64,000 nt of DNA from Pseudomonadota bacterium (GCA_003353845.1 PIVT01000001.1:45760-109759); one strand, 5' to 3'; shown: positions 2,687 through 46,573, numbered from the stretch's first letter. Program-made: numbers and translations. The notes: a model not told the origin generated them from the sequence alone.

Positions 2687-2697
2687 CGATTACAGAG

Positions 2698-3309: not shown

Positions 3310-3312
3310 GTT

Positions 3313-27247: not shown

Positions 27248-27352
27248 ATCGCGCCCTCCTACAGGGTTTTAGAGACCCTGCACGCTCTGACAAGAGCGGA
27301 TCCTTCCGCTAGCCTCTCGCGGCGTTCCGCGACGAATTGCTGACGGGGGACG

Positions 27353-27420
27353 TGTGAGCTGGACATGTGAGCCGAAAGAGCGACGGACTATTTGAGATCT
27401 TGAGATCGATCCCCGAGATC
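27353..27420 (+). promoter_or_regulatory. repeat cluster in the leader of the FAS-like operon (candidate operator/regulatory sites)
   Basis: Direct repeat TGTGAGC at 27353-27359 and 27366-27372. GAGATC occurs three times (27394, 27402, 27415), giving four GATC sites within 25 bp. The cluster ends 6 nt before the GAGGAAGGA RBS of the TTG start at 27442. Confidence 0.25.
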
Positions 27421-27441
27421 TAGAACGAGGAAGGAAATCCC

Positions 27442-29381: not shown

Positions 29382-29965
29382 AGTACGAAGAATATCGAAA
29401 CCGAAATCAATTCAATAAAGAAGAACTATTAGGGCTGGCACACGGCACGTTGTTGGAAGATGCGCCCGAAACCTATAAGTCGCGCTTGCCCGCACCCCCC
29501 ATGCTCATGATCGACCGTGTCACGTCGGTTACACGCAATAGAAACAGGGGGCGAATTGTCGCAGAGAAGGATGTCTCCGTAGACGATTGGTTCTTTCAGT
29601 GTCATTTTTTAAGTGATCCCGTGCAACCGGGTTGTCTGGGCGTCGATGGCGTTTGGCAGCTTGTCGGTTTTTACATCGGTTGGAACGGAGGTTTGGGAGC
29701 AGGTCGCGCTTTGGGTTGCGGCGAGGTGGAGTTCTCAGGTCAGATCCGACCCTTCGACAGCGTCATGCGTTACGAAGTTGATATTGTGCGCTACTCCGAA
29801 TTGCCAGCATCGGGTTCGGCCATTGCCATTGGCAACGCCGTTGTGTTCATCGATGATGAACCGATCTACGAAGTAAAGAAAGCCAAGGTAGGTTTGTTCA
29901 AGGACATTGAATACCCCGACTACCCCATGCGTTCCGAAAAATCGCGCGGCGGGAGACTTGAATAG
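29378..29965 (+). CDS. fabA: 3-hydroxyacyl-ACP dehydratase/isomerase FabA
   Basis: 195 aa. LPAPPMLMIDRV and WFFQCHFLSDPVQPGCLGVDGVWQLVGF match the FabA active-site His/Asp region. GTGA overlap with fabH. Confidence 0.85.
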   Translation: MKYEEYRNRNQFNKEELLGLAHGTLLEDAPETYKSRLPAPPMLMIDRVTSVTRNRNRGRIVAEKDVSVDDWFFQCHFLSDPVQPGCLGVDGVWQLVGFYIGWNGGLGAGRALGCGEVEFSGQIRPFDSVMRYEVDIVRYSELPASGSAIAIGNAVVFIDDEPIYEVKKAKVGLFKDIEYPDYPMRSEKSRGGRLE

Positions 29966-30694
29966 ATGAGTGACAAGAAAGTTGCGTTGGTAACAGGTGG
30001 CGGTACGGGCATTGGCTCTGCAATTTGTCGTGCGCTGGCTGCGGAAGGTTTTCGCGTCGCGATTCATTATCGCTCCAGCGAGGCGGGTGCGGCAGCGCTT
30101 GCTAAAGAACTAGACGACGCATTTACCATTCAAGGTGACTTGTCCGACGCTAGTTCCATTGATGCCATGGTGAAAACCTTGAAAGCCGAGGCGGGTCGCT
30201 GTGATGTGTTGGTGAACAATGCGGGCTTCAACGTCAACGCACCGATGATGACCATGAAATTAGGTGACTACGATGCCGTGGCCGCTGTCGAACGCGGCGC
30301 CTGGTATCTGACCAAAATGATTGTGCGTCGCTTTATGTTCCGCGCAGAGTCGGGTCGCATCGTGAACATTTCCAGCATTGTGGGTCACACAGGCAACGCT
30401 GGCCAGGTGCCGTACACCATGGCCAAGGCTGGCTTGGATGCCATGACGAAGTCCATGGCGTTGGAGATGCAGGATCGAGGTGTCTTGGTGAATTCCGTTG
30501 CACCGGGCTTTATCGACACCGAGATGACGGAAGTGCTGCCAGAGGAGATCAAGGAAAGTATCTTGAGTAAGATTCCTTTGGGTCGTATGGGCAAGGCAGA
30601 AGAGATCGCAGAGGTCGTGACCTTCCTGGCCACCAAGGCTGGCTATATCACGGGTACAGTGCTGCACGTTAATGGAGGCATGTACGGTGGGTAA
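29966..30694 (+). CDS. fabG: 3-oxoacyl-ACP reductase
   Basis: 242 aa. Motifs TGGGTGIGSAI, NNAG and YTMAKAGLDAMTKSMA (Y-x3-K), with a C-terminal GTVLHVNGGMY. The ATG abuts the fabA TAG. Confidence 0.88.
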   Translation: MSDKKVALVTGGGTGIGSAICRALAAEGFRVAIHYRSSEAGAAALAKELDDAFTIQGDLSDASSIDAMVKTLKAEAGRCDVLVNNAGFNVNAPMMTMKLGDYDAVAAVERGAWYLTKMIVRRFMFRAESGRIVNISSIVGHTGNAGQVPYTMAKAGLDAMTKSMALEMQDRGVLVNSVAPGFIDTEMTEVLPEEIKESILSKIPLGRMGKAEEIAEVVTFLATKAGYITGTVLHVNGGMYGG

Positions 30695-31148
30695 AAAATT
30701 AACTCCAGAAGAAGTGCTCGATCTCTTGCCCCAGCAAGAGCCCTTTCGCTTTGTGGATGAAATTCTTGAGATTGACGAGGATCACATCGTCGCGACCTAT
30801 CGATTCAGCCCCGAGTTGGATTTCTACCGCGGACATTTCCCCGGTAATCCCGTAACCCCCGGCGTAATCTTGATCGAGTCCATGGCACAAGTGAGTGTGG
30901 TGGCCCAAGGCCTGTATCTCTTCGCCCAGGAGTTAGATGACATCTCCCAGATCAGTGAGATGGTGACGGTATTTACGGATGCCCAGGTAGACTTCTCGGG
31001 CATCGTAAAGCCCGGTGAACGCGTAACGATTCGCGGGAAGAAAAATTTTTATCGGCGCCGAAAACTGTGTGCCGACGTGGAAATGTGTCTCGATGACGGG
31101 ACCATTGTGTGCTCGGGCCGACTCTCGGGCATGGGAGTAAAACAATGA
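30687..31148 (+). CDS. FabZ-like 3-hydroxyacyl-ACP dehydratase (hotdog fold)
   Basis: Motifs LLPQQEPFRFVDEI and FYRGHFPGNPVTPGVILIESMAQV. The GTG at 30687 is preceded by GGAGG (30674-30678). The ORF track's ATG at 30672 is an alternative start. Confidence 0.75.
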   Translation: MGKKLTPEEVLDLLPQQEPFRFVDEILEIDEDHIVATYRFSPELDFYRGHFPGNPVTPGVILIESMAQVSVVAQGLYLFAQELDDISQISEMVTVFTDAQVDFSGIVKPGERVTIRGKKNFYRRRKLCADVEMCLDDGTIVCSGRLSGMGVKQ

Positions 31149-32416
31149 GCCGCAGAGTTGTGGTGACAGGAATGGGCGTGGTTGCGCCCAATGCAACGAA
31201 CCTCAAGTCCTTTGAGCAAGCCTTGCGAGAAGGCAAGTCGGGCCTCCGTTTCATCGAAGAATTGGCGGAGCTGAAATTTGGTTGCCACGTGGCCGGTGTA
31301 CCCCAAAATGTCGACGCCCTGTGTGAAGAATATTTTGACGAAGACGCCTTGATGGCCATGAATTCCAGCCATCGCATGGGTTGCTTGGCAGCTGTGGATG
31401 CCTGGACCGATGCGGGTCTGGAGCGCCCCGATCCCAAGGACGATACCGTGCATTGGGATACAGGTGCCGTGATTGGAACCGGCGTGGGCGGCTTGGACAC
31501 GGCCTGTGAAAAGGTCGGGCCTCTAACCGATGCCAAAAAGGTGCGTCGCCTGGGCAGCACCACTGTTGAGCAAGTCATGGGCAGTGGTGTGGCCGCGCGC
31601 GTAGGGGGTCTATTGGCCCTTGGAAACCAAGTGACGGCGAATTCCAGTGCCTGTAGCACGGGGAATGAGGCCATCATCATGGGGGCCGAACGCATTCAAT
31701 CGGGCAAGGCTGAGCGCATGTTATGTGGTGGGGTCGAAGGGGCCACGAAGTACATCTGGTCGGGTTTCGATGCCATGCGCGTCTTGTGCCGAACGCACAA
31801 TGATCGTCCCGAGGAAGCCTCGCGCCCCATGAGCGCTTCGGCCGCTGGTTTTATACCCGGTTCCGGCGGGGGTTTGGTCATGGTGGAGAGCTTGGAATCG
31901 GCGGAAGCGCGTGGAGCGCGTATTCACGCCGAAATTCTAGGATCGGGCCTCAACTGCGGTGGCCATCGGACCGGGGGCAGCATGACAGCGCCCAATCCAG
32001 ACAGCGTGCAGCGCTGTATTAAACTGGCGCTGGAAGATGCCGGCATCTCAGGTGAGGAGATTGACGCCATCAATGGACACCTCACAGCCACGGGAGCCGA
32101 TAAAACCGAAGTTAACAACTGGTCAAAAGGCTTGGAAAGGGAGACACTCCCTTGGATTTGTTCAACCAAGTCAATGATTGGTCACGGTCTCGGCGCAGCC
32201 GGTGCGATTGAATCCGTGGCCGCTATCTTGATGGTGAGCAAGGGGTTCGTACACCCCAGCATCAATTGTGAGGACGTGCACCCGGAGATCGAGCGCTTCG
32301 CCGATTCGATCCCCCACAAGCTCGTCGAAATGCCTGAAATGAAAACTATCATCAAGGCCGGATTTGGATTCGGGGATGTGAATTCCTGTTTGATCTTTCG
32401 CAAGTGGGAAGGCTGA
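31145..32416 (+). CDS. beta-ketoacyl-ACP synthase I/II-type (FabB/FabF-like)
   Basis: The N-terminus is MSRRVVVTGMGVV. Active-site Cys is in NSSACSTG, and the two His are in GGHRTGGSMTAPN and INGHLTAT. The C-terminus is GFGFGDVNSCLIF. ATGA overlap with the preceding gene; the ORF opens at 31109. Confidence 0.85.
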   Translation: MSRRVVVTGMGVVAPNATNLKSFEQALREGKSGLRFIEELAELKFGCHVAGVPQNVDALCEEYFDEDALMAMNSSHRMGCLAAVDAWTDAGLERPDPKDDTVHWDTGAVIGTGVGGLDTACEKVGPLTDAKKVRRLGSTTVEQVMGSGVAARVGGLLALGNQVTANSSACSTGNEAIIMGAERIQSGKAERMLCGGVEGATKYIWSGFDAMRVLCRTHNDRPEEASRPMSASAAGFIPGSGGGLVMVESLESAEARGARIHAEILGSGLNCGGHRTGGSMTAPNPDSVQRCIKLALEDAGISGEEIDAINGHLTATGADKTEVNNWSKGLERETLPWICSTKSMIGHGLGAAGAIESVAAILMVSKGFVHPSINCEDVHPEIERFADSIPHKLVEMPEMKTIIKAGFGFGDVNSCLIFRKWEG

Positions 32417-32481
32417 AGGCACTTAAGGCTAGATGAAGTATCCAGCCAGCCCAGACCCAATTTTAAAAGGAGTAAGTAGCA

Positions 32482-32730
32482 ATGAGTGAACAAGAAATTT
32501 TTGACAAGGTAGTGAAGATTCTTGAGCCCTATGTCAAGAACGAAGAAGCATTTGCAAGTGTGGTCAAAGAGACAAGTATTCTAGAAGACCTGAAGGTCAA
32601 TTCCGCTCGTCTCGTCGATGTGGTGCTCGCTTTCGAGGATGAGTTTGATATCGAAATTGCCGACGAAGACGCTGATGCCGTTGTGACCGTTGGCGATGCG
32701 GTTCGTATTATCACCGAAAAACTAGGCTAA
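32482..32730 (+). CDS. acyl carrier protein, non-canonical attachment motif
   Basis: 82 aa, acidic, with a four-helix ACP-like pattern. The putative phosphopantetheine Ser41 (nt 32602-32604) is in LEDLKVNSARLVDVVLAFEDEF, where housekeeping ACPs have LGADSLDTVELV. The RBS is AAAGGAG. Confidence 0.75.
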   Translation: MSEQEIFDKVVKILEPYVKNEEAFASVVKETSILEDLKVNSARLVDVVLAFEDEFDIEIADEDADAVVTVGDAVRIITEKLG

Positions 32731-32758
32731 TTCAGCCTTTTAAGCGGCGGGTCTAACG

Positions 32759-33508
32759 GTGTCAACTCTCTCCGAACGAGACCGCATCGCGCTTCGTATT
32801 CAACGCGAGGTTGGCAGGTTTTTCGGACCCCTCTGGATCCCCTTGATTGCGTGTGCTCTGCGTTTTGGTTTCGGGTACCGCATCAGGGGCGTACGTGAAT
32901 TGCGCCAGCGCTTTCTTGCGCTGCGGCGCGAGTTCGACGGTCCTCTGCTCATCTGTTCAAATCATCTAACGATGATTGATTCTGCCATCATTGCGACGGC
33001 CTTGGCGCCGTCATGGTGGTACTGCCTCCATTTTTCGGCGCTGGCTTGGAATATTCCAGAGCGACGAAACTTTGCCTCGAGCTACATCAATAACGCGTTG
33101 GTGTATTTGGTGAAGTGCATTCCCATTGTGCGCGGTGGGGATCGCAAAGATATCGCTCACGTGTTGGACTCCCTTACTTATTTGATGGGCCTTGGAGAGG
33201 TTGCCTTGATCTTTCCGGAGGGGGGGCGCTCCCGTACGGGTCGTGTGGAAATTGGTTCGGCGGCCTACGGTGTAGGGCGGATCGTGAAGACGCTGCCCGG
33301 TTGCCGCGTCCTTTGTGTTTATCTGCGCGGCGATGGCCAAGACGTACATTCGGATCTCCCCGTGCGTGGGGACCAGTTTGATATGGAATTTAGCTGCATC
33401 GAACCGACATCGGAGATGAAGGGGATGCGGGCAACACGCGATATTTCACTTCAGATTATGAATGAGATTGTCGCGCTTGAAGCGAGATACTTCGATGCTC
33501 GGCAATGA
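32759..33508 (+). CDS. PlsC/LPLAT-family acyltransferase
   Basis: 249 aa with a GTG start. The HX4D motif is in CSNHLTMID and the second block is ALIFPEGGRSRTG. It has an N-terminal hydrophobic segment. Confidence 0.75.
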   Translation: MSTLSERDRIALRIQREVGRFFGPLWIPLIACALRFGFGYRIRGVRELRQRFLALRREFDGPLLICSNHLTMIDSAIIATALAPSWWYCLHFSALAWNIPERRNFASSYINNALVYLVKCIPIVRGGDRKDIAHVLDSLTYLMGLGEVALIFPEGGRSRTGRVEIGSAAYGVGRIVKTLPGCRVLCVYLRGDGQDVHSDLPVRGDQFDMEFSCIEPTSEMKGMRATRDISLQIMNEIVALEARYFDARQ

Positions 33509-34127
33509 CATCGTCGATTTGTCTGATTTAGAGACACAGCCGGGCGCACAACACCCGCGTTTTGACAGCCGCGTCTTTACCCGGGAAGAGCGGGCTCGTT
33601 TGGATCAGTCCAGGGATTCGCACCGCTTGCGTTGGAGCTACTGGGCCGCCAAAGAAGCCACCTATAAATGGCTTCGCAAGCGGGACGAGGATGTTATTTT
33701 TTCCCCTCGGAGCATGTCGGTGTCCTTCGATAACGACAGCCTTGAAGGGGGAGAGGTACTTGTTGGTCCGGACCGCGTCGCCGTGAAGTTTTACCAACAT
33801 TCTGAATACGTACATGCCTTGGTGCATGACCCGGAGGCCGCTGTCTCCGCCCCTGCGATCGTCGTACACGTAGAGCGCATGGCTGATAGAGAGGTTGCGG
33901 CCGATTGTGCGAGCAGGCGCTTGCGCGAACTGGTGATTGCTCGGTTTTCGGCGGAACTCGAAATCGATCCGACGAATCTGTGCGTCGTGAGCGAGGGCAA
34001 GATCCCCAGGCTTGAAAGCAAGGGGGCGAGGCTAGAGGTGGATTTATCTTTTTCTCATCATGGACGTTATGCTGCCTTTGTAGCGCAACATGGAAACCAA
34101 CCAGCCGGTGAGCGAGGTGCTGCGTGA
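33495..34127 (+). CDS. 4'-phosphopantetheinyl transferase superfamily protein
   Basis: 210 aa from the ATG at 33495 (the ORF opens at 33462). GNDIVDL at the N-terminus and WAAKEATYKW match the PPTase G-x-D and W/F-x-x-KE-x-x-K motifs. Confidence 0.65.
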   Translation: MLGNDIVDLSDLETQPGAQHPRFDSRVFTREERARLDQSRDSHRLRWSYWAAKEATYKWLRKRDEDVIFSPRSMSVSFDNDSLEGGEVLVGPDRVAVKFYQHSEYVHALVHDPEAAVSAPAIVVHVERMADREVAADCASRRLRELVIARFSAELEIDPTNLCVVSEGKIPRLESKGARLEVDLSFSHHGRYAAFVAQHGNQPAGERGAA

Positions 34128-37100
34128 GTAAGATCAAGCCCATTCGTAGAGTTGCCATTGTGAACCGCGGTGAAGCGGCCATGCGCTGTATTCGAGCGGT
34201 GAAAGCCCTGGCGGCCTTAGAAGGAAGTGATCTTGTAGCCGTTGCGCTTTACACCGATGTCGATCGCGATGCCCCATTTGTGCGACATGCGGATGTTGTG
34301 CACCACTTGCCTCGTGAAGGCAGTGCGGTGTCCTCCTATTTGAATCACGATCTGTTGATCAGGGCTTTGCATGAAGTTAAAGCCGATGCCGTCTGGCCTG
34401 GCTGGGGCTTTGTCGCCGAAGATGCGGTGTTTGCGGACCGAGTGGAAGAAGAGGGCATGATCTTTTTAGGCCCCAGCGGCGACACCATGCGCAAGCTGGG
34501 CGACAAAATCGCATCAAAGAAATTGGCAGAGTCGGCCAAGGTTCCCGTGACCGCCTGGAGTGGCGCTGAAGTTGAGAGTGCTGAAGACGCCATCAAGCAC
34601 GGAGAGCAGATTGGCTATCCACTGGTGGTCAAAGCCTCGGCCGGTGGTGGTGGGCGCGGTATTCGCATGGTCGATACCCCTGAAGAGCTGCCAGCTGCCT
34701 TTGAGTCGGCGGCTTCCGAGGCCTTGAACGCCTTTGGGGACGGGCGCTTGTTCATGGAGGGCAAAGTAACGGGCGGTCGACACATTGAGGTGCAGATCGC
34801 GGCCGACAAGCACGGCCAGGTAGTGGCTGTCGGTTGCCGCGATTGTTCCGTGCAACGGCGTCATCAAAAAGTGCTGGAAGAAGCCCCGCCCATGGGGTTG
34901 TCGACCGATACGCTAGAAAACCTCAAAACCTCGTCAGTACGCCTTGCCGCTTCGGTGGGGTACTCCGGTGTGGGAACCGTCGAATTCCTGGTAAAGGAAC
35001 CCGAGATCTTCTTTCTGGAGATGAACCCGCGCTTGCAAGTGGAGCACGGTATCACGGAGGCCATTACGGGCGCTGATCTCGTGCAGGAACAAATCCGAAT
35101 CGGGCGCGGGGAGCGCCTTTTGAAAACGGAGTACACAGAGCAGGGTGTCGCCATTGAAGCCCGTGTGTGCGCCGAAGATCCCGATGCCGGATTTTTGCCC
35201 GCCCCCGGTCGGATCGCTTGTTTCGATCCCGCATTGGGGCCACGTATTCGCATCGACACCGGAGTGGTGGCGGGCAGTCGTGTCCCCGCCGATTTTGACT
35301 CTTTGATTGCCAAAGTGATCGCCACGGGTTCGACGCGTGAAGAAGCGCGAGCACTGTTGTCCTGTGCCCTGAACGATTTTGATTTGGTGATCGAAGGGGG
35401 TGCGACCAACAAGGGATATATTCTCGAGCTCTTGGAGTCAGAGGATTATCGCCGCGGGGGTGTCGATACTCTTTGGCTCGACCGTTGGAGTGCGGACCGC
35501 ACTGAGGTGCGCCCCTTCGCAGGGGAAGCCTTGGTGGTGGCTTCCTTGTTGGCTTATCGCCAAGTGCGAAACCTGGCCCTGATTAATTTTTATTCTGATA
35601 CCGCAGGGGCCACTCCGGCTTCGGCTCCCGCTTCCGTGGGCCAGGAAATGGATTTGAATTACTGCGGAGAGCAGTACCGACTCGATGTCTTTGCAATGGG
35701 CGCGCGTCGCTATCGTGTCCATCTCGACGGAACGGTTGTGAGCGCCACCCTGTACGAAGAAGGTCTGAACGCTGCGCGTTTGAAAATTCGAGATCAGATT
35801 TTACGAATTGTGTATGACGTGACGGATACCGACATTCGCGTTGAAGTCGAAAATTGCGCCCATCGATTCGGCCGACAAACAGCAGGGCGGGTCTGTGCTG
35901 GAACGCCGTCGTCTGTCGTAGCCGTTCATTCGAAACCGGGTGATGAAGTGCAAGCGGGCCAGTCCTTGGGCTTGCTTGAAGCCATGAAAATGGAAATTGG
36001 CTTTGACGCTCCCGTCAGCGGCATCGTCACTGAAGTGCACGTTCAAAAGGGCCAGCAAGTGGCGGCCGGCGATGTCTTGCTCGTCATCGAACCGGCTTCG
36101 GACGAAGATGCGGTTGGAGAGAAAGCCGAGCGCTTGTCCTTGCCTGTTGAACAAGATGCCTTGGCGGCCCTGTTTGCTTTAAACGAAGACGGTTCCTTGG
36201 GGCATCCGGATTTGTTGGCAGCCGACCGTGCTGATATCCAGGTGCGCCGTTCGGCCATTGCAGCCGTTCAGGAAGAAATCCGCAGAATTCTGTTGGGCTA
36301 CGACGCAAATCCCAAACGAGTGACAGCGTTGATTGCTTTTTTGGAGGCACCTTTCCCAGAGGCGCTTTCCGAAGAGTTCCGCAAAGAACTCAGTCAGATT
36401 GCTTCGGGGATCTCGCTGTTCTCGGATATCGAAGAACTCTTCATCCGCACGCCGCGTGCCTCGGTGTTGGGTAGTGCGGGTCCATCAAACAATGCACAGC
36501 TGCGCATCTTCTTGAGAAGGATGGGCGAGGAAGGTGAGGGGATGCCGGAAGAATTCCTCAGCTTGCTCAAACGCGCTTTGGCTCACTACCGAGTTGACGA
36601 CTTCTCGCGCATGGAACTGCTACAGCGATCCATGCTGCGCTTGTTTTCCTCTCAGCGAGAGCCGGATCTGCGGCATCGATTGGTGCACGGCATTGTCCGT
36701 TGCGTCATTCGCCTGGCCGAGTCGGGCATTGATATGGCCGGTAATCAAAACTTTGAGTACGCACTGACACGCATTGCTTCCATGCGCGGCCGTATTGACA
36801 ACGCATTGGCGGATCTGGCCATTGACGGTCGTTATAAGGTCTTTCAAGAGCCGGGCATCGAACGGAGTGCCGAGCATTCCACCGTGGCCTTGGAGCGTTG
36901 GCTCGCCCAAGCGGTGGATATCCCCACGACGCCACCCAGCGATATCGTAAATCATCTGGCTACAGCGCAGCGTGCCGTATTCAACCGGGTCGGCAGTTGG
37001 TTGGTGGAAAGCGATCCGCGCCATCGGCGCATTGCACTCGGCGTTGCACTGCGTCGTTATTATGCGCCGCGCGTGGCTACAGAAATTGAACCTCGCTTGC

Positions 37101-39730
37101 CCGACGACGAACTCATCGAATGTTTGGAGATCGAGGGCCTGGGAATTGTGATTGGTAGCTTGGCGTCGAAAAACACGCTGACCGAGGTCCTGGCGCGGGT
37201 GATCTCGGGTGCCAGAGCGCTCTCCGCACCGGCTGGCATCGCAGTGGAAGTATTGGTTCCCCTGGATGTGAACGAAGAGATCATGGCCATTCGGGAAGTG
37301 ATGAAATCCACACTGGCCGATTGCGATCTCGACGCACGGTTTACCTTGAGCTGTTTGTTGCCGAATGAAGATCAGCACTTTACGTGGGAGCGCGACGGGA
37401 CGGACTTGTGCGAGGTGGAGTTGTACGGCTTGCACCCGGAAACGGCATTGCGCGTCGACCTCAACCGCCATGCGAACTTTGAACTCGAGCGCCTGCCGGG
37501 CCCCGATGGGGTGTATTGTTTCTTTGGCTCTGCCAAGGAAGTGCCTGAAGATAGGCGCATGTTTGTCCTCGCCGACGTGCGAGGCTACACGCCCAGCGAA
37601 GGACCTCCCCAAGCGGCTCTATTGTTGGCGAGTTTTGAGAAAGCCTTTTTTGAGGCCACGCGTGCCTTGCGCACGAATATTGGCTTGTGCGATCCGCGAC
37701 GACAGATGAAGTGGAACCGCATTTCCCTTTTCGTTTCCCAAGACATCGTGCTCGATAACGAGATCGTTGATCGGTTGGCCAAGCGACTCACGCCCGCCAC
37801 GCGCAATCTCGGGCTGGAAAAAGTCATCGTGCGACTCGGGTCCTTGCTCGATGGCGGTGACCTCAGTGCGCCCCCGCGGCAGATGGAAGTTCAGTTTGCC
37901 GACCCGACGGGAAGTCAGTTGGAAGTATCCTGGAGGCCTTTACACACTGATCCCTTAGAGCCGGCGGCCGCTTATGAGCGCAAGGTCGTGGCGGCTCGCA
38001 GCCGAGGGCTGATTTATCCCTACGAGATTATTCGTATGCTGACCAGTGCGGTCTCGGGTCAAGACGAAGTGGCGATGGATCTTACGGAAGGCGATGAATC
38101 AGCCTTGCGTGGGGGAACCTTCGAAGAATACGAATTGGATGCAAAGGCAGATACGCCCACGGCGATTTCCGTCAGCGGTCGTCCCTATGGCGGGAATTCC
38201 AGCTCCATCGTTTTCGGAGTGATCTCTTCGCCCACGGAAACCATTCCAGAGGGAATGGTACGCGTCATCATTCTTTCGGATCCCACCAAGGGAATGGGAA
38301 GTCTGGCGGCTCCGGAATGTGACCGCATTTTGGCGGCCATTGATTTGGCCGAAAAGATGCAGGTTCCCGTGGAATGGGTTCCGCTCTCCAGTGGCGCGCG
38401 CATTGCCATGGACAGCGGCACCGAAAACCTGGATGCCACAGCCCGCATCGTGAAGCGCATTGTCACCTTTACCCAGACTGGCGGCCTCATTCACCTCGTG
38501 GTTCAAGGCGTCAACGTCGGTGCACAAAGTTACTGGGATGCACTGAGTACCATGTTGATGCACACCAAGGGTGTGCTGATCATGACGCCTGGCGCTTCCA
38601 TGGTGCTCACGGGTCGGGCGGCCTTGGCGGCTTCGGGTTCGGTGTCGGCTGAAGATGAAGCGGCCATCGGTGGCTATGAGCGGATCATGGGCCCCAATGG
38701 GCAAGCGCAGTATTACGCGGAAAATCTGGGTGATGCCTTCCGCATTTTGTACGACTACTACCGATTTAGTTACGTCGTTCCCGGTGAAGATCGTCCACGT
38801 GATCGCGTGAGCGAAGACGCCGTCGATCGCTCCGTTACGGATTACCCTTATGAAGTGGAAGGGCACGATTTTACCACGGTGGGCCAGGTCTTCGACGATG
38901 AAACCAACCCGGGTCGCAAGAAGCCCTTTGCCATGCGCCCGATCATGCGTGCTGTCATCGATTCCGACAGCAGCTTCTTGGAACGCTGGAATGCCCTGGT
39001 CGGTGGGGAGACCGCCATTGTTTGGGATGGATACATGGGTGGCCACCCTCTTTGTATGATTGGCATCGAGAGTCAAAACGTCGCGCGTTGGGGATATCGG
39101 CCCAGCGATGGGCCCTCGGAATGGAACGGTGGCACCTTGTTCCCATTATCGTCCAAGAAAGTGGCGCGAGCACTGAACTCCGCCAGCGGAAATCGTCCGG
39201 TGGTGATCTTGGCCAACCTGTCGGGCTTCGATGGCTCGCCAGAGTCCATGCGCAAGCTGCAACTGGAGTACGGCGCGGAGATCGCGCGGGCCACGGTGAA
39301 CTTCGAAGGTCCCTTGCTCTTCTTGGTGGTTTCTCGATATCACGGCGGTGCCTATGTCGTGTTCTCTCACGAACTCAATCCGAGCTTGCGGGCGACGGCC
39401 TTGGAAGGGTCGTATGCCTCAGTGATTGGCGGCGGTCCCGCGGCCTCGGTGGTCTTTCCGCGTGAAGTTCGGACCCGCACCTCAGCCGATCCACGGGTGC
39501 GCAAACTACAAGAACAGCTGCGCTTCACCTTGCACGCCGGGGAGCGGGCTGAAATTGAACGCGTGCGCCAAGAAGTTTTTCTCGAAAAGCAAGCCGAGGT
39601 TGCGGCGGAGTTTGACTCGATTCACACGGTGGAACGCGCGCTCCAAGAGGGCTCCATCGAGGCCATTATCTCGCCGGAGACGATTCGTCCCTTCCTGATT
39701 GATCAAATTGAAAAAGGCCTGAAGTCTTAA
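34124..39730 (+). CDS. single-chain multidomain acyl-CoA carboxylase (BC - BCCP - central region - carboxyltransferase)
   Basis: 1868 aa with a GTG start overlapping the upstream stop. Biotin carboxylase motifs are GYPLVVKASAGGGGRGIRMV and EMNPRLQVEHGITE. The biotinylation motif is LEAMKMEI (Lys622). Carboxyltransferase blocks are IILSDPTKGMGSLAAPE, SSGARIAMDSG and VILANLSGFDGSPESMRKLQLEYGAEI. Confidence 0.85.
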   Translation: MSKIKPIRRVAIVNRGEAAMRCIRAVKALAALEGSDLVAVALYTDVDRDAPFVRHADVVHHLPREGSAVSSYLNHDLLIRALHEVKADAVWPGWGFVAEDAVFADRVEEEGMIFLGPSGDTMRKLGDKIASKKLAESAKVPVTAWSGAEVESAEDAIKHGEQIGYPLVVKASAGGGGRGIRMVDTPEELPAAFESAASEALNAFGDGRLFMEGKVTGGRHIEVQIAADKHGQVVAVGCRDCSVQRRHQKVLEEAPPMGLSTDTLENLKTSSVRLAASVGYSGVGTVEFLVKEPEIFFLEMNPRLQVEHGITEAITGADLVQEQIRIGRGERLLKTEYTEQGVAIEARVCAEDPDAGFLPAPGRIACFDPALGPRIRIDTGVVAGSRVPADFDSLIAKVIATGSTREEARALLSCALNDFDLVIEGGATNKGYILELLESEDYRRGGVDTLWLDRWSADRTEVRPFAGEALVVASLLAYRQVRNLALINFYSDTAGATPASAPASVGQEMDLNYCGEQYRLDVFAMGARRYRVHLDGTVVSATLYEEGLNAARLKIRDQILRIVYDVTDTDIRVEVENCAHRFGRQTAGRVCAGTPSSVVAVHSKPGDEVQAGQSLGLLEAMKMEIGFDAPVSGIVTEVHVQKGQQVAAGDVLLVIEPASDEDAVGEKAERLSLPVEQDALAALFALNEDGSLGHPDLLAADRADIQVRRSAIAAVQEEIRRILLGYDANPKRVTALIAFLEAPFPEALSEEFRKELSQIASGISLFSDIEELFIRTPRASVLGSAGPSNNAQLRIFLRRMGEEGEGMPEEFLSLLKRALAHYRVDDFSRMELLQRSMLRLFSSQREPDLRHRLVHGIVRCVIRLAESGIDMAGNQNFEYALTRIASMRGRIDNALADLAIDGRYKVFQEPGIERSAEHSTVALERWLAQAVDIPTTPPSDIVNHLATAQRAVFNRVGSWLVESDPRHRRIALGVALRRYYAPRVATEIEPRLPDDELIECLEIEGLGIVIGSLASKNTLTEVLARVISGARALSAPAGIAVEVLVPLDVNEEIMAIREVMKSTLADCDLDARFTLSCLLPNEDQHFTWERDGTDLCEVELYGLHPETALRVDLNRHANFELERLPGPDGVYCFFGSAKEVPEDRRMFVLADVRGYTPSEGPPQAALLLASFEKAFFEATRALRTNIGLCDPRRQMKWNRISLFVSQDIVLDNEIVDRLAKRLTPATRNLGLEKVIVRLGSLLDGGDLSAPPRQMEVQFADPTGSQLEVSWRPLHTDPLEPAAAYERKVVAARSRGLIYPYEIIRMLTSAVSGQDEVAMDLTEGDESALRGGTFEEYELDAKADTPTAISVSGRPYGGNSSSIVFGVISSPTETIPEGMVRVIILSDPTKGMGSLAAPECDRILAAIDLAEKMQVPVEWVPLSSGARIAMDSGTENLDATARIVKRIVTFTQTGGLIHLVVQGVNVGAQSYWDALSTMLMHTKGVLIMTPGASMVLTGRAALAASGSVSAEDEAAIGGYERIMGPNGQAQYYAENLGDAFRILYDYYRFSYVVPGEDRPRDRVSEDAVDRSVTDYPYEVEGHDFTTVGQVFDDETNPGRKKPFAMRPIMRAVIDSDSSFLERWNALVGGETAIVWDGYMGGHPLCMIGIESQNVARWGYRPSDGPSEWNGGTLFPLSSKKVARALNSASGNRPVVILANLSGFDGSPESMRKLQLEYGAEIARATVNFEGPLLFLVVSRYHGGAYVVFSHELNPSLRATALEGSYASVIGGGPAASVVFPREVRTRTSADPRVRKLQEQLRFTLHAGERAEIERVRQEVFLEKQAEVAAEFDSIHTVERALQEGSIEAIISPETIRPFLIDQIEKGLKS

Positions 39731-40935
39731 GCGGAAGGCCCTTTTGCAACGAGATCCAGCACGGTATCCAGCGCATTCCAAAGATCCTCTTCGGGGATAT
39801 TCAGAGCCGGGAACAGTCGTATGACATTGCCCGCCGTCACATTGACGAGCACACCTTTTTCCAGCGCTGCTTGAGGAAGGGCGGCGGCTTGTTCGGCGTC
39901 ACTCAGCACCAGGCCTTGCAATAGCCCGGCCCCGCGAGTCTCCGTGGCTTGCGTTGGATGTTCAGCAATAAAGGTGTTGAAGCGCTGGGCGATTTTCTCG
40001 CCGAGTTTGGCCGAGCGATCCACGAGCCCCTCTTCTTCGATGACGCGGATGACCGTATTGGCGGCTGCGCAGGTCAGCACGTTGCCCGCATAGGTACCTC
40101 CGTGATCGCCCAGCGATACGGTCGAGGCCACTGCTTCGGTGGTCATAAAGCCCGCGATGGGGACACCCCCGCCCAGTCCCTTGCCCAGGGTCAGCACATC
40201 CGGCGTGACGCCCGAATGCTCGAGGGCAAACATCTTTCCCGTTCGACCCAGACAGGTTTGAATTTCATCGAAGATAAGCAAAGCGCCCTTGCGATGGCAG
40301 ATCTCCCGCAGGGCCTGAAGGTATTCAGCTTGAGCAATGTTCACCCCACCTTCGCCCTGAATGGGTTCGACGATGAAAGCAGCCGTGTTCTCATCAATGG
40401 CAGCTTCAGCCGCTTGAATGTCATTGAGGGGAACGATGCTGGGCGTGGGCAAGAGCGCCTCGAAGGGAGCCCGATGCTTTTCCTGGCCGATGACCTTGAG
40501 TGCCCCCAAGGTGCGTCCGTGAAAGGACAAGTCTGTGGAGACAAACTGACTGCGTCCCGTGGCCCGGTGAACCAGTTTCAATGCACCTTCAACGGCTTCG
40601 GTCCCGGAACTGACAAAGAACGAGCGCGTCAGGGCTTCCGGAGTCAGCCGGTCCAAGCGCTCCATCAGGTCGAGTTGGGGAAGCGTGTAAAACAGATTTG
40701 TCGTCTGTATCAATTGAGCGGCTTGGTTCGAAAGGGTTTCCACCAGGGCCGGGTGGCAGTGGCCAATGGCGTTCACTCCCCAACCAGCCGTCAGGTCGAT
40801 TAACTCGCGACCGTCTTGATCTGTGACACGGGATCCCCGCCCCTGGACGAGAACCACGGGCATGCGCTTGACCACTGGTAGAAAGTGAGCGGCTTCGCGG
40901 GCTTGGGTCTGTGTCAGGGTGGTCTTTTCAGCCAT
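39727..40935 (-). CDS. argD: acetylornithine aminotransferase (class-III PLP aminotransferase)
   Basis: 402 aa. Motifs include GWGVNAIGHCHP, FVSSGTEAVEGALKL, LLIFDEIQTCLGRTGKMFA and the PLP lysine in DVLTLGKGLGGG. Confidence 0.8.
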   Translation of the reverse strand: MAEKTTLTQTQAREAAHFLPVVKRMPVVLVQGRGSRVTDQDGRELIDLTAGWGVNAIGHCHPALVETLSNQAAQLIQTTNLFYTLPQLDLMERLDRLTPEALTRSFFVSSGTEAVEGALKLVHRATGRSQFVSTDLSFHGRTLGALKVIGQEKHRAPFEALLPTPSIVPLNDIQAAEAAIDENTAAFIVEPIQGEGGVNIAQAEYLQALREICHRKGALLIFDEIQTCLGRTGKMFALEHSGVTPDVLTLGKGLGGGVPIAGFMTTEAVASTVSLGDHGGTYAGNVLTCAAANTVIRVIEEEGLVDRSAKLGEKIAQRFNTFIAEHPTQATETRGAGLLQGLVLSDAEQAAALPQAALEKGVLVNVTAGNVIRLFPALNIPEEDLWNALDTVLDLVAKGPSA

Positions 40936-41160
40936 CAGTGGGGTCTCCGAGTAGGTGGACGGGAGAGTTCAGCTTTTGAAGCGCCCCGTCAAGCTTTCCC
41001 CACCCCCGGGCTGGGAAATGAAGGGCGGCTGGAGCCCTAAACCGCCTTGTGCATCGTTGCTAGCCCGCGTCCAGGTCGGTTACCTTAGCTCTTCGCGATT
41101 ATTCGCACCGAATCCAGCAAGTGGGATCGGGACCTCTACCCGGCTTAGTGAGATCAGTAC

Positions 41161-42420
41161 GTGACAGCAGTCTCAGGGGCTAGCGCCCTATCCAACATCG
41201 ATATTGAAAAGTTCCTCCTCGACGCCCTGGCGGAGAAGGAGCTGGACCGAGGAGAACTGTGCCTGCTGGCCGAGCAACTGGGGGATCCGGCCCTGCGCAG
41301 TCGCCTGTTTGAGGTGGCTTCAGAACTCAAGCAGCGTAGCAAGGGCGATGTGGTGACGGTCTCGCGCAATGTCTTCATCCCCCTGACGAACCTGTGTCGC
41401 AATCGCTGTGGTTACTGCACTTTTGCCAAACAACCCGGTTCTCCCGAGGCCAAGACCTATGCGCTGGAGGAAGTGGCCAGCACGGTTCGCTCCGCCCAGC
41501 AGGCGGGTTGTCTCGAAGCCTTGTTTTGCCTGGGTGACAAACCCGAGCGCGCTTACAAGGAGCACCGTGCCTGGTTGGCCGAGCGCGGTTTCGCCTCCAC
41601 TGCGGAATACTTGATTGAAGCCTGCAAACTCACTTTCCGCGCGGGCATGTTCCCCCATTCCAATGCCGGGATTTTGACTCGCTCGGAGATGGAGGCGCTG
41701 CGACCTTGGAACGCCTCCATGGGCTTGATGTTGGAAACCTCCAGCACGCGTCTGCGGGGCAAGGGCATGCCGCATTATTATGCTCCCGACAAAGAACCCT
41801 CTGTGCGATTGCGCATGCATGAGGAAGCGGGGGAACTCAAGATTCCTTTCACGAGTGGACTCTTGCTGGGGATCGGCGAAACCAATGAAGAGCGAGTCGA
41901 TACACTTTTCGCGTTGCGCGACATCGAAGACCGCTACGGACATCTGCAAGAGGTGATTGTTCAGCCCTTCCACCCCAAGTTCGACACGCCCATGGCTGAC
42001 AGTGCCCCGTTGACCGAAGAGATCTTTGCCGCTTGGGTGGCGCTGGCTCGCTTGGTGTTGGGTTCCCACATGAATTTGCAAGCGCCGCCGAATTTGTCCC
42101 CCACGGTGTTGCCCATGCTATTGGCCGCGGGTGTGAATGATTGGGGCGGTGTGTCGCCCGTGAGCCTGGATTACATCAACCCCGAAGCGCCCTGGCCCGC
42201 CTTGCTGGAATTACACAGGCAGACCGAAGCTTCCGGCCAAAAACTTCGGGAGCGCTTGCCCGTCTACCCAGAGTGGATCACCCATCGACCCGAGTATTTC
42301 GAGCCGCAGATGCTAGAGGTGCTCAAAGCCCGGGCGGATGGCGAGGGATATGCTCGGGCCCACACAGTAGAATTGGACCCCCACCCGCAGCAGGGTCGAA
42401 AAAGAGAGGCCGCAGCATGA
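41161..42420 (+). CDS. cofG: FO synthase subunit CofG-like radical SAM enzyme (7,8-didemethyl-8-hydroxy-5-deazariboflavin synthase)
   Basis: 419 aa. SRNVFIPLTNLCRNRCGYCTF is the CofG-type CxxxCxxC context. It is paired with a CofH-like gene by an ATGA overlap. The GTG start is uncertain. The MqnC/MqnE families are the main alternative. Confidence 0.7.
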   Translation: MTAVSGASALSNIDIEKFLLDALAEKELDRGELCLLAEQLGDPALRSRLFEVASELKQRSKGDVVTVSRNVFIPLTNLCRNRCGYCTFAKQPGSPEAKTYALEEVASTVRSAQQAGCLEALFCLGDKPERAYKEHRAWLAERGFASTAEYLIEACKLTFRAGMFPHSNAGILTRSEMEALRPWNASMGLMLETSSTRLRGKGMPHYYAPDKEPSVRLRMHEEAGELKIPFTSGLLLGIGETNEERVDTLFALRDIEDRYGHLQEVIVQPFHPKFDTPMADSAPLTEEIFAAWVALARLVLGSHMNLQAPPNLSPTVLPMLLAAGVNDWGGVSPVSLDYINPEAPWPALLELHRQTEASGQKLRERLPVYPEWITHRPEYFEPQMLEVLKARADGEGYARAHTVELDPHPQQGRKREAAA

Positions 42421-43646
42421 TGATTGAGAAATTGCTCTCCCTGACGAATCCGCGTGTCGCCAATATTCTGGATGCCGCTCTTTCGGATCGAGAAATGACG
42501 CGTGATGAAGCGGCGATCTTACTGGAGGCCACGGGTGTCGAGTTGCACGCGCTCATGGCGGCCGCCGACGAAGCACGTCGCCAGGATTGCGGGGAGGACG
42601 TCAGTTACGTCGTCAATCGCAATATCAATTCCACCAATATTTGCTACGTGGGCTGCAGCTTTTGCGGGTTTGCACGAAATAAACACGACGAGGATGCCTA
42701 CGATCACCCCGTGGAAGCCATGGTCGAGAAGGCCAGGGGAGCCATTGAGCGCGGCGCAACCGAGGTTTGCATTCAGGCGGGTATCCACCCGAACAAAGAT
42801 CATCGGCATTATCACGAAATTCTAGAAGCCATCCACAGCACCTTTCCCGATCTACACATCCACGCCTTTTCACCGGAAGAGCTGGATTGGGGACATCAGA
42901 AAAGTGGCATGCCTCTGAAGGAGTATTTGCTCTGGTTGAAGGACGCAGGGCTGGGCACGATTCCCGGAACAGCGGCAGAAATCCTTGACGACACCCTGCG
43001 CAAGCGAATCTCCCCGCGCAAGTTAATGACCGAGCGTTGGCTGGAGATTGTGCGGGCGGCGCATGGCGTCGGGTTGCGTTCTTCCTCGACGGTGATGTAC
43101 GGGCACCTGGAAACGGTTCCGCAACTGGCGGCGCATTTGGAAACCTTGCGAAATCTGCAAAAGGAAACGGGTGGCTTTACTGAGTTTGTGCCCTTGGGAT
43201 TCATTCACGAAAAAAATCTCTTGTACAAAGAACTCGGTGCACGGGCCGGTTCCAGCATGCTGGAAGATCTGCGCATTATTTCCGTGGGCCGCCTGTTCTT
43301 CCGGCCGGGAATTATCAACGTGCAAACTTCTTGGGTGAAACTGGGGACCAAGCTGGCTCAAATGGCCTTACTGGCCGGAGCCAACGATTTTGGCGGCACG
43401 CTTATGGAAGAATCCATCAGTCGCGAATCGGGTTCACAGCACGGGGAATATCTTTCGGCGGAGGAAATCCGCATGTTGATTCGAGACTTGGGTCGCGTGC
43501 CTGTGGAACGCAACACGACGTATCAGGAATTGCGACGTTTCGATGAAGAGCCCCAGCTGACACCTCTGCAAGGGGGAGAGTCCGATGGAAAAACAGTCGA
43601 GAGGGCGGAGTCGGCTGCAAATCCCCTGCGAGTGCTCGCCAGTTAG
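42417..43646 (+). CDS. cofH: FO synthase subunit CofH-like radical SAM enzyme
   Basis: The start MMIEKLL at 42417 overlaps the cofG stop (ATGA); the ORF track opens at 42141. VSYVVNRNINSTNICYVGCSFCGF is the CofH/Mqn-type cluster motif. Confidence 0.7.
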   Translation: MMIEKLLSLTNPRVANILDAALSDREMTRDEAAILLEATGVELHALMAAADEARRQDCGEDVSYVVNRNINSTNICYVGCSFCGFARNKHDEDAYDHPVEAMVEKARGAIERGATEVCIQAGIHPNKDHRHYHEILEAIHSTFPDLHIHAFSPEELDWGHQKSGMPLKEYLLWLKDAGLGTIPGTAAEILDDTLRKRISPRKLMTERWLEIVRAAHGVGLRSSSTVMYGHLETVPQLAAHLETLRNLQKETGGFTEFVPLGFIHEKNLLYKELGARAGSSMLEDLRIISVGRLFFRPGIINVQTSWVKLGTKLAQMALLAGANDFGGTLMEESISRESGSQHGEYLSAEEIRMLIRDLGRVPVERNTTYQELRRFDEEPQLTPLQGGESDGKTVERAESAANPLRVLAS

Positions 43647-43678: not shown

Positions 43679-45136
43679 TTAAATTTCGTAACTTCGAGAT
43701 TGTAGTTCGCTGGAGCGCTGCACCTTGATCTGTTCGATGCGCGAGGAAATCGCTTCGACCTGATAGCGCAAGGGTGCTCGCTCAAGCATGCGTCGCTCAA
43801 TCACGCGAATCGCATTGCTCACTGAGGGATGTTCCTTATTGAGTGCACGCCCGATTTGCTTGAAGGATGCGTCGGTATAGCGATGGCAAAGGTACATGGC
43901 CAATTGGCGGGGGAGCAGAATCTCTCGCCGTCTGGAACGCGAGGCCAATGTGGCTGGCGCCGTCTTGAAGAACTTGGCCACAATATCGATGATGATTTCA
44001 GGATCGAGTGCCGCTTCGTGGACAGGCGGAGGGGCCACTTTCTTCAGCGCATTTTCAGTGAGTTCCAGGTCAATGGATCGACTGAGGAGTGCAGAACTGG
44101 AAACGAGTTGAATCAACACGCCTTCGAGATCGCGCACACTGCCGCGCAGGGAAGACACCAAGAGTTCAATACAAGCCGGTGGAATGTGCACCCCGCCCCG
44201 AGCCGCGCGGTCGCGCAAAATTTCACGCCGGACGTGGGCATCGGGAGGTTCAATCTCTGCGACGAGGCCCGCAGTCATATGCGAACACAGTCGCGGATCC
44301 AAACTTGTGATATCGCGAGGGAATCGGTCGCTGGTGAACATGACGCGCACGCCGGATTCACGCAGGTGCTCCACGGTATGAAAAAGTTCCATCTGTGTTG
44401 AACTCTTACCCGAGAGGAATTGCACATCTTCGATGACGAGGAGTTCGCAGTTGCGTCGGTAGACCCGCTTGAACTGATCCATTTGTCGGTTGCGGACCGC
44501 CGTGAGGAAATCACCGGTAAAGCCTTCGGCCGATGTGCAGACTACATTGTCGGCGCCGGACTGCAGTGCCTGGGCAGCGACAGATCGGGCGAGATGGGTC
44601 TTGCCCATGCCGGAAGCGGAGCTTAGGAAGAGCGGGCTGACACCGTGCTGCCCACCGACAGCCAAGGCGTAAGAGGCCTCTCGCGCGAGTGCGTTACAGC
44701 CACCCGTCACAAAGGAACTAAAGCTATAGGGAAGTTCGACTTGGGTAGAGCCTGTCGACTGCTTGCCGGTCCAGCGCTTGCCCGGTGTCTTCCAGCCGCC
44801 TTTAGACATGGGTGTGGTTTTCTTTTCCGGCGCTGGTTTCCGTGTCGCCGCCTGCGCGGGTGTGGCGGTCTGGACCAAGGCCAAGGCTGGCGGGTGCTCA
44901 TCCACCACAAGTTCTACATTGATGTCGTTAGCGGCCACCTCAGTGACACAAGAAGTAATCTCTTGCAGGAAGCGGTCGCGCACTCGCCCTTGGTGAAATG
45001 CGTTTGGACAGCACAGTTTCAGGCCTGAGGCTGACTCATCGACCCGCAAGGGTTGCAACCAAGCCTCAAAAGAAAAGGCTGTTGTCCGTTTTTCTAGCAG
45101 GCACAAGGCACCTGTCCAAAGCTCATTCGGCTTCAT
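43679..45136 (-). CDS. dnaA: DnaA-family replication initiator homologue (divergent)
   Basis: 485 aa. Domain I is LWTGALCLLEKRTTAFSFEAWLQPL. AAA+ motifs are Walker A SGMGKTHL, Walker B LLVIEDVQFL and sensor II SVRDLEGVL. The C-terminal HTH is PRQLAMYLCHRYTDASFKQIGRALNKEHPSVSNAIRVI. Confidence 0.85.
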   Translation of the reverse strand: MKPNELWTGALCLLEKRTTAFSFEAWLQPLRVDESASGLKLCCPNAFHQGRVRDRFLQEITSCVTEVAANDINVELVVDEHPPALALVQTATPAQAATRKPAPEKKTTPMSKGGWKTPGKRWTGKQSTGSTQVELPYSFSSFVTGGCNALAREASYALAVGGQHGVSPLFLSSASGMGKTHLARSVAAQALQSGADNVVCTSAEGFTGDFLTAVRNRQMDQFKRVYRRNCELLVIEDVQFLSGKSSTQMELFHTVEHLRESGVRVMFTSDRFPRDITSLDPRLCSHMTAGLVAEIEPPDAHVRREILRDRAARGGVHIPPACIELLVSSLRGSVRDLEGVLIQLVSSSALLSRSIDLELTENALKKVAPPPVHEAALDPEIIIDIVAKFFKTAPATLASRSRRREILLPRQLAMYLCHRYTDASFKQIGRALNKEHPSVSNAIRVIERRMLERAPLRYQVEAISSRIEQIKVQRSSELQSRSYEI

Positions 45137-45994: not shown

Positions 45995-46207
45995 TTATGA
46001 CTGTTGTTGCTTCTTTAACTCATCATATTCTTCAAGAGTGTTTGGACCTTCGCTCACTGCAGCTTCGATGTTGTCGCAAGCAATGGCTTTGTCGAGTACT
46101 TCGCGCAAGAGGCCCGACACACTGAGCTCATCATATTCTTCGAAAGCATCTTCGAGGCTGCTCTCAGAAATATTAAACTCGAGGTTTACTTTGATCTTCA
46201 TGTCCAT
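45995..46207 (-). CDS. small acidic hypothetical protein (70 aa)
   Basis: ATG preceded by GGAG (10-nt spacer), with a terminator downstream. The protein has 18 Asp/Glu versus 6 Lys/Arg and EEYDEL occurs twice (aa 23-28 and 59-64). Its GC content looks lower than the flanking genes by eye. Confidence 0.55.
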   Translation of the reverse strand: MDMKIKVNLEFNISESSLEDAFEEYDELSVSGLLREVLDKAIACDNIEAAVSEGPNTLEEYDELKKQQQS

Positions 46208-46573
46208 CTGGTCTGATCTCCAGTGCCGACCATGCGGTTATTTCAGTTTCAAAAATCTGATGGCCCACAGCGCTGGCCAAACTATTCGTGATCTGCACAT
46301 TCTGTTCGCGCTCTATTGGAGAGCCGCTTTAAAATCCAGATGCCGTTACACCTGGAACTTCATCCTGCCCGGGTCACTTGGATCATACCTTGGCGTTTCA
46401 GACACGTCTCGCTCGGCGTGTGGCTGTAACCTATTGAAATGTATGATGCTTTCGCCCATCTTGCTCGGGAATAGTACCCAATGCCTTTTGAAAGGGCTAC
46501 GAAAATCCCCAAAATTATTCCAGTCGGGAATGAGAGCCTTGCCGCCTCGATCAGGAGGTCAGGAGCACTCGGG

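Follow-up and report, generated by a model that had tools for sequence, protein, structure and literature searches.

In a paper of 2024, homomeric acetyl-CoA carboxylase (ACC) was still called eukaryotic and prokaryotic ACC heteromeric (PMC11077971). The literature that we found holds one characterised actinobacterial homomeric ACC, SACE_4237 of Saccharopolyspora erythraea (Livieri 2019, Sci Rep 9:6725; PMC6491548). That article describes it as a homodimeric enzyme of ~200 kDa in which a biotin carboxylase (BC), a biotin carboxyl carrier protein (BCCP), a central region and a carboxyltransferase (CT) succeed one another. Both acetyl- and propionyl-CoA are carboxylated by it, and it is indispensable for the synthesis of fatty acids. 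Its central region is akin to that of eukaryotes, and its CT falls together with eukaryotic ACC CT. For complementation, its authors used the E. coli strain L8. The same text unites eukaryotic ACC and the bacterial SACE_4237-like enzymes in a 'group V', and mentions carboxylase subunits inside polyketide or polyunsaturated fatty acid (PUFA) clusters. [quoted passage not shown] Here, we analysed a stretch of 64,000 nt deposited as Pseudomonadota bacterium (GCA_003353845.1, PIVT01000001.1:45760-109759), hereafter the window, in which the last of ten consecutive genes is an open reading frame (ORF) for a biotin-dependent carboxylase of 1868 aa. We show by sequence and fold comparison that this ORF encodes a true single-chain ACC, that its domains are laid out as in eukaryotes, down to the central domain (CD), which is non-catalytic, and that it belongs to a large bacterial family.

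Results

The open reading frame and its biotin carboxylase and biotinyl ends

An initial annotation, made from the nucleotide sequence, had reported an uninterrupted carboxylase ORF with BC motifs in its first ~450 aa, a biotinyl-lysine motif and two blocks parallel to those of eukaryotic CT. All these features were recovered. The ORF is unbroken on the plus strand over its full length (Table 1). The two BC motifs, GYPLVVKASAGGGGRGIRMV and EMNPRLQVEHGITE, lie at aa 164-183 and 299-312; the Pfam domains of this part of the protein are Biotin_carb_N 7-122, CPSase_L_D2 127-332 and Biotin_carb_C 345-453. The motif EAMKME occupies aa 619-624, and the codon of Lys622 (AAA) falls exactly where it had been placed, at nt 35987-35989. 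The CT blocks SSGARIAMDSG and VILANLSGFDGSPESM are found at aa 1422-1432 and 1694-1709. Only the beginning of the CT region was slightly misplaced: YPYEIIRML, put at about aa 1280, is present but lies at aa 1298-1306. In the remainder of the protein Pfam matches Biotin_lipoyl (597-655) and Carboxyl_trans (1376-1855), which are separated by ~700 aa with only a faint ACC_central score inside. Pfam and collinear homologues together give the order BC, BT-like linker, BCCP, CD (~635 aa) and CT on one polypeptide.

The N-terminal part resembles bacterial carboxylases. Searched against PDB, the BC region matched BC subunits and the alpha chains of propionyl-CoA carboxylase (PCC) and methylcrotonyl-CoA carboxylase (MCC), with E about 1e-105. 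The N-terminal 655 aa can be aligned from one end to the other with MCC/PCC alpha subunits of bacteria, BT region included (e.g. the MCC alpha chain 3u9s_A, E 1e-105, query 5-655 to chain 6-650), and one relative, L084, gives a weak Pfam ACCA_BT match. For the whole BC-BT-BCCP part, scores to bacterial PCC/MCC alpha subunits exceed those to eukaryotic ACC. Across 41 family members the residues K128, K170, H220, E222, K249, E287, E299, N301, R303, Q305, V306, E307 and R347 are invariant, and we take them to correspond to the catalytic residues of E. coli BC. These invariant residues indicate an intact BC active site, with its ATP-grasp glycine-rich loop and EMNPRLQVEH block. A620, M621 and K622 of the biotin motif are invariant as well, in keeping with the required (A/E)MKM, and so are the two CT blocks.

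The central domain

Between BCCP and CT, the initial annotation had recognised no motif over ~600 aa. We aligned aa 657-1292 with its homologues (A2, 17 sequences) and searched PDB with the resulting profile. Six distinct sequences matched, with E from 8e-8 to 1.4e-6; each is a yeast or Chaetomium ACC CD construct, and the next match after the eukaryotic ACC CDs has an E of only 0.24. An AlphaFold2 model of the CD, computed on A2, has a mean pLDDT of 85.8 and a pTM of 0.82, and shows a helical N-terminal half with three alpha/beta units after it. When this model was compared with PDB by Foldseek, 30 matches were obtained at E<=0.001 (1.1e-19 to 6.5e-10), and every one is a eukaryotic ACC CD or a holoenzyme containing one (yeast 5csl/5csk/5csa/5i6e/5cs4, Chaetomium 5i6f-i, human 8xl0-2/8xkz/6g2d-i). 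The alignments reach about 650-690 columns, at about 15-20% identity of the CD to its eukaryotic counterparts. Beyond the ACC CDs, the next match is a designed armadillo protein at 9e-3.

Among the domain models applied, those for BC, Biotin_lipoyl and Carboxyl_trans match the window protein, whereas ACC_central (PF08326) stays below threshold in it and matches 14 of the 17 family CD segments at E<=0.1 (best 3.5e-8). A precomputed PF08326 match is also recorded for many of the homologues in the databases. We base homology on the family profile and the fold, rather than on the PF08326 score of the window protein itself, and by these measures the ~635-aa region is a genuine central domain of the ACC type, homologous to that of eukaryotes. 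The stretch left without a motif is thus accounted for.

The carboxyltransferase domain

The CT gives a similar picture. Used as a single sequence against PDB, aa 660-1868 have eukaryotic ACC CD-CT or CT chains as top matches (1.3e-17 to 2.8e-11), and bacterial beta subunits appear at 4e-8 and weaker. With a CT profile of seven sequences (A3), the 20 best distinct PDB sequences are all eukaryotic ACC CT, from 5.5e-26 to 1.2e-18. Among bacterial acyl-CoA carboxylase beta subunits, none scores better than 2e-12. For the reverse test, a profile was made from 60 fungal ACC CT fragments. It matches all 270 family sequences gathered, with a median of 42 bits, and the window protein with 38 bits (E 4e-11). 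Among every long ORF from 79 ordinary carboxylase loci, by comparison, only two weak matches of <=17.6 bits were returned. By this two-way ranking of scores, eukaryotic ACC CT stands nearer to the window CT than PccB/AccD-type subunits do.

The likeness to eukaryotic ACC proposed in the initial annotation is thereby upheld: eukaryotic ACC CT ranks ahead of every solved bacterial beta subunit, with the single sequence and with the profile, the reverse search agrees, and the ANSGARIG-like and ILANWRGFSGG-like blocks do align with the yeast CT. The same annotation had named an outcome that would speak for an ordinary fusion, a central region unrelated to ACC_central together with a CT among PccB/AccD fusions; we found the opposite on both counts. 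No subclade of the family stands nearer to eukaryotes than the others, and the fungal-profile scores of its members lie between 15 and 68 bits.

Size and distribution of the family

A full-length search over 5.8 billion proteins gave >120 clusters whose alignments cover 99-100% of the query at 56-62% identity, with lengths of 1824-1912 aa and from many independent assemblies. Where a source is named, it is a metagenome-assembled genome (MAG) that bears the label Myxococcota, Polyangiaceae, Myxococcales, Deltaproteobacteria or just 'bacterium', and the annotations are generic, e.g. 'ATP-grasp domain-containing protein'. The initial annotation had raised the possibility of a sequencing or assembly frameshift joining separate genes. 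Since more than 120 clusters from different assemblies are collinear over 99-100% of the length, such an artefact is ruled out.

Searching with the CT only, over 1.84 billion representatives at 50% identity, we obtained 545 clusters or more with E<=1e-30. Of these 545, the 150 best all have 44-75% identity over the matched region and are mostly 1750-1910 aa long; one cluster of this search is from an Oligoflexia MAG. The statement that such fusions are few and mainly actinobacterial therefore holds for the literature but not for the databases, where the clusters include Myxococcota, Polyangiaceae and Oligoflexia. An exact look-up of the window protein returned no record. A search of genome contigs with the full protein matched only the EIFFLEMN-type BC motif of ordinary BC-BCCP alpha subunits; it yielded 79 such loci, with no member of the family among them.

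Two family members are unusual. In EukProt, P0175 (1995 aa, EP00899 Mesostigma viride), with a CT 55% identical to that of the window protein, is entered as belonging to a green alga. By score it nests among bacterial sequences, as would follow from either bacterial contamination or horizontal transfer. P0257 (L085:10001-17903, 2381 aa), a distant member with 44% CT identity, carries a BPL_LplA_LipB domain as a C-terminal fusion, and a separate second biotin protein ligase (BPL) gene lies directly after it in L085. P0257 would be a carboxylase bearing its own biotinylating enzyme.

The ten-gene run

The carboxylase closes a run of ten genes on the plus strand that spans 27442-39730 and in which neighbouring genes lie -47 to +65 nt apart (Table 1). 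Pfam and NCBIfam assignments agree with its original description as the last gene of a lipid-type operon. At the junction of the carboxylase with the preceding 4'-phosphopantetheinyl transferase (PPTase) gene, ...GCGTGAGTAAG..., the shared 4 nt are GTGA. From their spacing, the ten genes are probably co-transcribed, and the carboxylase is apparently translationally coupled to the PPTase.

Table 1. Position of the carboxylase, its domains and the nine genes that precede it, in nt of the window. SDR, short-chain dehydrogenase/reductase; ACP, acyl carrier protein; KAS, beta-ketoacyl-ACP synthase.
Feature	Position	Strand	Evidence and remarks
Single-chain multidomain biotin-dependent acyl-CoA carboxylase, whole ORF	34124..39730	+	GTG start; 5,607 nt; 1868 aa + stop; 203.8 kDa predicted
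BC domain, aa 1-455	34124..35488	+	Pfam, PDB matches, invariant ATP-grasp/catalytic residues
BT-like linker, aa 456-590, joining BC to BCCP	35489..35893	+	Collinear with the BT region of 3u9s_A; boundaries approximate
BCCP (biotinyl) domain, aa 591-656	35894..36091	+	Pfam Biotin_lipoyl, E 3.7e-15
CD, aa 657-1292	36092..37999	+	Profile, AF2 model, Foldseek; helical N-terminal part, then three alpha/beta sub-domains
CT domain, aa 1293-1868	38000..39727	+	Pfam Carboxyl_trans, E 3e-30
SDR-type enoyl-ACP reductase-like protein, 314 aa	27442..28386	+	Pfam; first gene, 194-nt gap before it
KAS III (FabH-like) condensing enzyme, 332 aa	28383..29381	+	Pfam, NCBIfam; resembles FabH
FabA-type dehydratase/isomerase, 195 aa	29378..29965	+	NF003509 201.5 bits, above cut-off 124
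FabG-like 3-oxoacyl-ACP reductase, 242 aa	29966..30694	+	Pfam, NCBIfam
FabZ/ApeI-like dehydratase, 158 aa	30672..31148	+	Pfam, NCBIfam, related loci
KAS I/II-type, 435 aa	31109..32416	+	Equally similar to FabB and FabF, below both equivalog cut-offs
Divergent ACP, 82 aa	32482..32730	+	56.6 bits, under every curated ACP cut-off
PlsC/LPLAT-family acyltransferase, 249 aa	32759..33508	+	Pfam Acyltransferase; NHxxxxD and FPEGGRSR motifs
PPTase, 221 aa	33462..34127	+	Pfam ACPS; stop overlaps carboxylase start by 4 nt

FabA is the sole cassette protein tested that scores above its housekeeping cut-off. All other NCBIfam equivalogs remain under theirs: FabH with 143.9 bits for a cut-off of 292, FabF 293.7 for 493.75, FabB 262.9 for 630, FabG 258.3 for 297.75, FabZ 72.4 for 155 and ACP 50.8 for 70.45. 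The NHxxxxD and FPEGGRSR motifs of the acyltransferase are invariant in six orthologues, and no homologue of this protein was found among PDB sequences. Pfam models match the enoyl-reductase-like SDR in two stretches, the main one at aa 153-307 and a KR-domain piece at aa 12-100, which suggests that the Rossmann fold bears an insertion of ~50 aa. L080, L081, L083 and L087 have this gene as well.

Conservation of gene order

To place the cassette, we compared eleven loci, the window and ten relatives (L080-L089). The cassette and the carboxylase occur in the same order in six of them (window, L080, L081, L082, L083 and L087), whose outer flanks differ, and the 4-nt overlap of PPTase and carboxylase recurs in L080-L083 and L087. 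KAS III, the FabZ-like dehydratase, KAS, ACP, acyltransferase, PPTase and ACC form the constant core, and the enoyl reductase, FabA and ketoreductase are variable. In the other five loci the carboxylase lacks the full cassette. It stands alone in L084 (Oligoflexia), L085, L086 and L088. In L089 it sits at the chromosomal position that it has in the window, but with only two SDR genes upstream; the KAS, ACP, acyltransferase and PPTase genes are missing there. Window, L087 and L089 have a common setting, with ThiI, OmpA and a DinG-like helicase upstream and a radical-SAM pair and dnaA downstream, and the synteny of this block spans distant relatives (L089:1-23538, window 21916-45136, L087). Because the full cassette is missing from five of eleven loci, including L089 at the syntenic position, the carboxylase looks like a resident gene, preceded by the cassette in some lineages only. 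This weakens the proposal of the initial annotation that the enzyme was recruited to feed the pathway.

Chromosomal surroundings and host

The window is core chromosome of uniform GC, with aroA, hisD, hisF, dnaG, rpoD, leuA, thiI, dnaA, thiC, aroC and acs. The carboxylase is followed by a convergent argD, and no accA, accB, accC or accD gene lies within the window. RpoD has 88% and 82% identity to proteins of two 'Deltaproteobacteria bacterium' MAGs and then about 50-60% to those of Myxococcota/Myxococcales. By this protein comparison, the host is an uncultured, deep Myxococcota-affiliated lineage.

Several other features of the window were recorded. An acetyl-CoA synthetase gene (ACAS_N, AMP-binding, AMP-binding_C) lies at 57009-58970 on the minus strand, 17 kb downstream of the carboxylase; it is a possible source of acetyl-CoA for the carboxylase. 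The two radical-SAM genes that adjoin dnaA are at 41161-43646 (+) and 43679-45136 (-), the second with a CofH/MqnC C-terminal region. Their ORFs overlap by ~280 nt in the window when the most-upstream starts are used, and abut in L087 and L089. Cumulative GC skew climbs steadily across the window, with no switch near dnaA. An NFACT_N + NFACT-R_1 protein (RqcH/FbpA-like, ribosome quality control) at 10340-11824 (-) adjoins a tRNA-Met at 11964-12039, and L083 too has a small NFACT-R protein near the cassette. Pfam gave no match at E<=1e-5 (for the 401-aa one, at E<=0.001) in four sizeable ORFs whose GC3 is coding-like: 14134-16425 (-, 763 aa), 2683-3888 (-, 401 aa), 16724-17311 (+, 195 aa) and 46038-46592 (+, 184 aa).

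Discussion

We showed that a eukaryotic type of carboxylase architecture is carried by many bacteria. Since the full layout, CD included, is seen in a large bacterial family, the CD cannot count as a eukaryotic invention. The enzyme is probably the cell's general supplier of malonyl-CoA, co-transcribed with a cassette that resembles a fatty acid synthase (FAS). We favour a general supplier because five of the eleven loci carry the carboxylase without the full cassette, and our analysis makes this role the most likely one also in view of the precedent of SACE_4237 and of the core-chromosome setting with uniform GC. Biotin protein ligase would attach biotin to Lys622 of the BCCP, and the N-terminal BC would carboxylate this biotin using ATP and bicarbonate. 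The BCCP would then swing to the CT, where the carboxyl group would be passed to acetyl-CoA, possibly to propionyl-CoA too, giving malonyl-CoA. As in the fungal and human enzymes, the CD would be a non-catalytic scaffold placing BC and BCCP relative to the CT dimer. The cassette would use up the malonyl units to make an acyl chain, which it would pass on to a lipid acceptor. In this scheme the substrate, the dimeric state, the co-transcription and the product of the cassette are all four what we infer.

Several observations weigh against so general a reading. The similarity of the CT to eukaryotic CT is remote (about 16-25% identity; 66-95 bits), and it is CT similarity alone that points to acetyl-CoA as the likely substrate. 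The ACC_central model gives the window protein 13.1 bits at full length and 17.5 bits for the CD alone, under the gathering threshold of 23.2. FabD (malonyl-CoA:ACP transacylase) is in none of the six cassettes, and the route from malonyl-CoA to malonyl-ACP would therefore depend on a gene elsewhere. Finally, a scan of 26800-41200 for promoter and terminator consensus sequences gave counts at or below shuffled expectation; as these scans gave no signal above chance, it is the gene spacing that defines the putative transcription unit.

The fixed gene order and the 4-nt overlap, found in six loci with differing outer flanks, also suit a carboxylase dedicated to the pathway. Such an enzyme would make extender units, malonyl-CoA or another carboxy-acyl-CoA, for the cassette, and a separate housekeeping ACC would serve bulk synthesis. 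ACP, KAS, KAS III, ketoreductase and FabZ-like proteins below housekeeping cut-offs, next to their own PPTase, fit a secondary pathway, and the carboxylase subunits embedded in polyketide and PUFA clusters, as mentioned in the Livieri article (PMC6491548), provide a precedent. Yet, the loci without the full cassette, L089 at the syntenic position among them, are at odds with such a role, as are the essential general function of the sole characterised relative and the size of the family, which is very large and whose more distant branches are mostly stand-alone. We consider dedication to the pathway unlikely.

The missing FabD could be explained in another manner, if the enzyme used acyl-ACP directly; another non-standard substrate would be a long-chain acyl-CoA, as in pathways of the mycolic-acid type. 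The dedicated ACP and PPTase beside the carboxylase, and a CT only remotely similar to any characterised one, would be in line with a substrate of this sort. Nevertheless, the CTs nearest by score all belong to acetyl-CoA carboxylases, the yeast CT aligns with the ANSGARIG-like and ILANWRGFSGG-like blocks, SACE_4237 uses short-chain CoA esters (PMC6491548), and no ACP adjoins the stand-alone family members. A non-standard substrate seems to us very improbable. As for a frameshift join, a PccA-PccB fusion with a spacer or an LCC-type chain, nothing speaks for them beyond the resemblance of the N-terminal 655 aa to a complete PCC/MCC alpha subunit, and they can be dismissed given more than 120 collinear homologues, a 'spacer' that is a conserved and confidently folded CD, a domain order opposite to that of LCC, and a CT that ranks with eukaryotic ACC and not with PccB.

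A general malonyl-CoA supplier, which we prefer, leaves room for two bolder propositions. The Myxococcota/Bdellovibrionota branch might be as close to eukaryotic ACC as the actinobacterial branch, or closer, and the cassette might be an undescribed lipid pathway with its own eukaryote-type carboxylase and no need for FabD. That either or both should hold is rather unlikely in our estimation. If this branch were as close or closer, myxobacteria-like bacteria would become a candidate source of eukaryotic ACC. The origin of eukaryotic ACC in any case becomes testable with a far broader bacterial sample, and structural studies or malonyl-CoA engineering can make use of compact ACCs (~204 kDa). The conserved association of the carboxylase with a FAS-like cassette that has an ACP, a PPTase and an acyltransferase of its own suggests a lipid pathway that merits study. 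The interest of the family lies in its breadth, in a complete CD outside eukaryotes and Actinobacteria, and in the conserved operon link. In the literature, we found nothing on homomeric ACC in Myxococcota or on the cassette, and on bacterial homomeric ACC only Livieri 2019.

How, then, does the window protein relate to the known carboxylases? It is least like the LCC, with which it shares being a bacterial single-chain biotin-dependent carboxylase; its opposite domain order (BC-BCCP-CD-CT), its 204 kDa and its CD rule out an enzyme of that type. With the heteromeric carboxylases, i.e. the actinobacterial and archaeal AccA/PccA + AccD5/PccB and AccABCD, it has in common the chemistry and the BC, BCCP and CT folds, and its N-terminal 655 aa align with MCC/PCC alpha. 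But these enzymes have separate subunits and no CD, and their beta subunits match the window CT at 2e-12 or worse, against 5.5e-26 for eukaryotic ACC. A PccA-PccB fusion with an unrelated spacer is likewise ruled out, by the folded and conserved ACC CD and by the ranking of the CT with eukaryotic ACC. Eukaryotic cytosolic ACC (yeast Acc1, C. thermophilum, human ACC1) shares with the window protein the domain order, the CD fold over its whole length, the biotin motif and the closest CT blocks. It differs in being about 350-500 residues longer (2218-2407 vs 1868 aa), and the window protein has a BC-BT-BCCP part nearer to bacterial PCC/MCC alpha by score and a gene in a bacterial operon. The closest characterised enzyme is SACE_4237, likened here by its description, a bacterial single chain of ~200 kDa with the same domain order. 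SACE_4237 is from Actinobacteria, whereas the window protein is from a Myxococcota-affiliated uncultured lineage, and the available part of the Livieri article describes no adjoining FAS-like operon for it (PMC6491548), whereas the window gene follows a nine-gene FAS II-like cassette. Hence, the window protein belongs to an already known kind of enzyme, of which SACE_4237 is the nearest characterised example.

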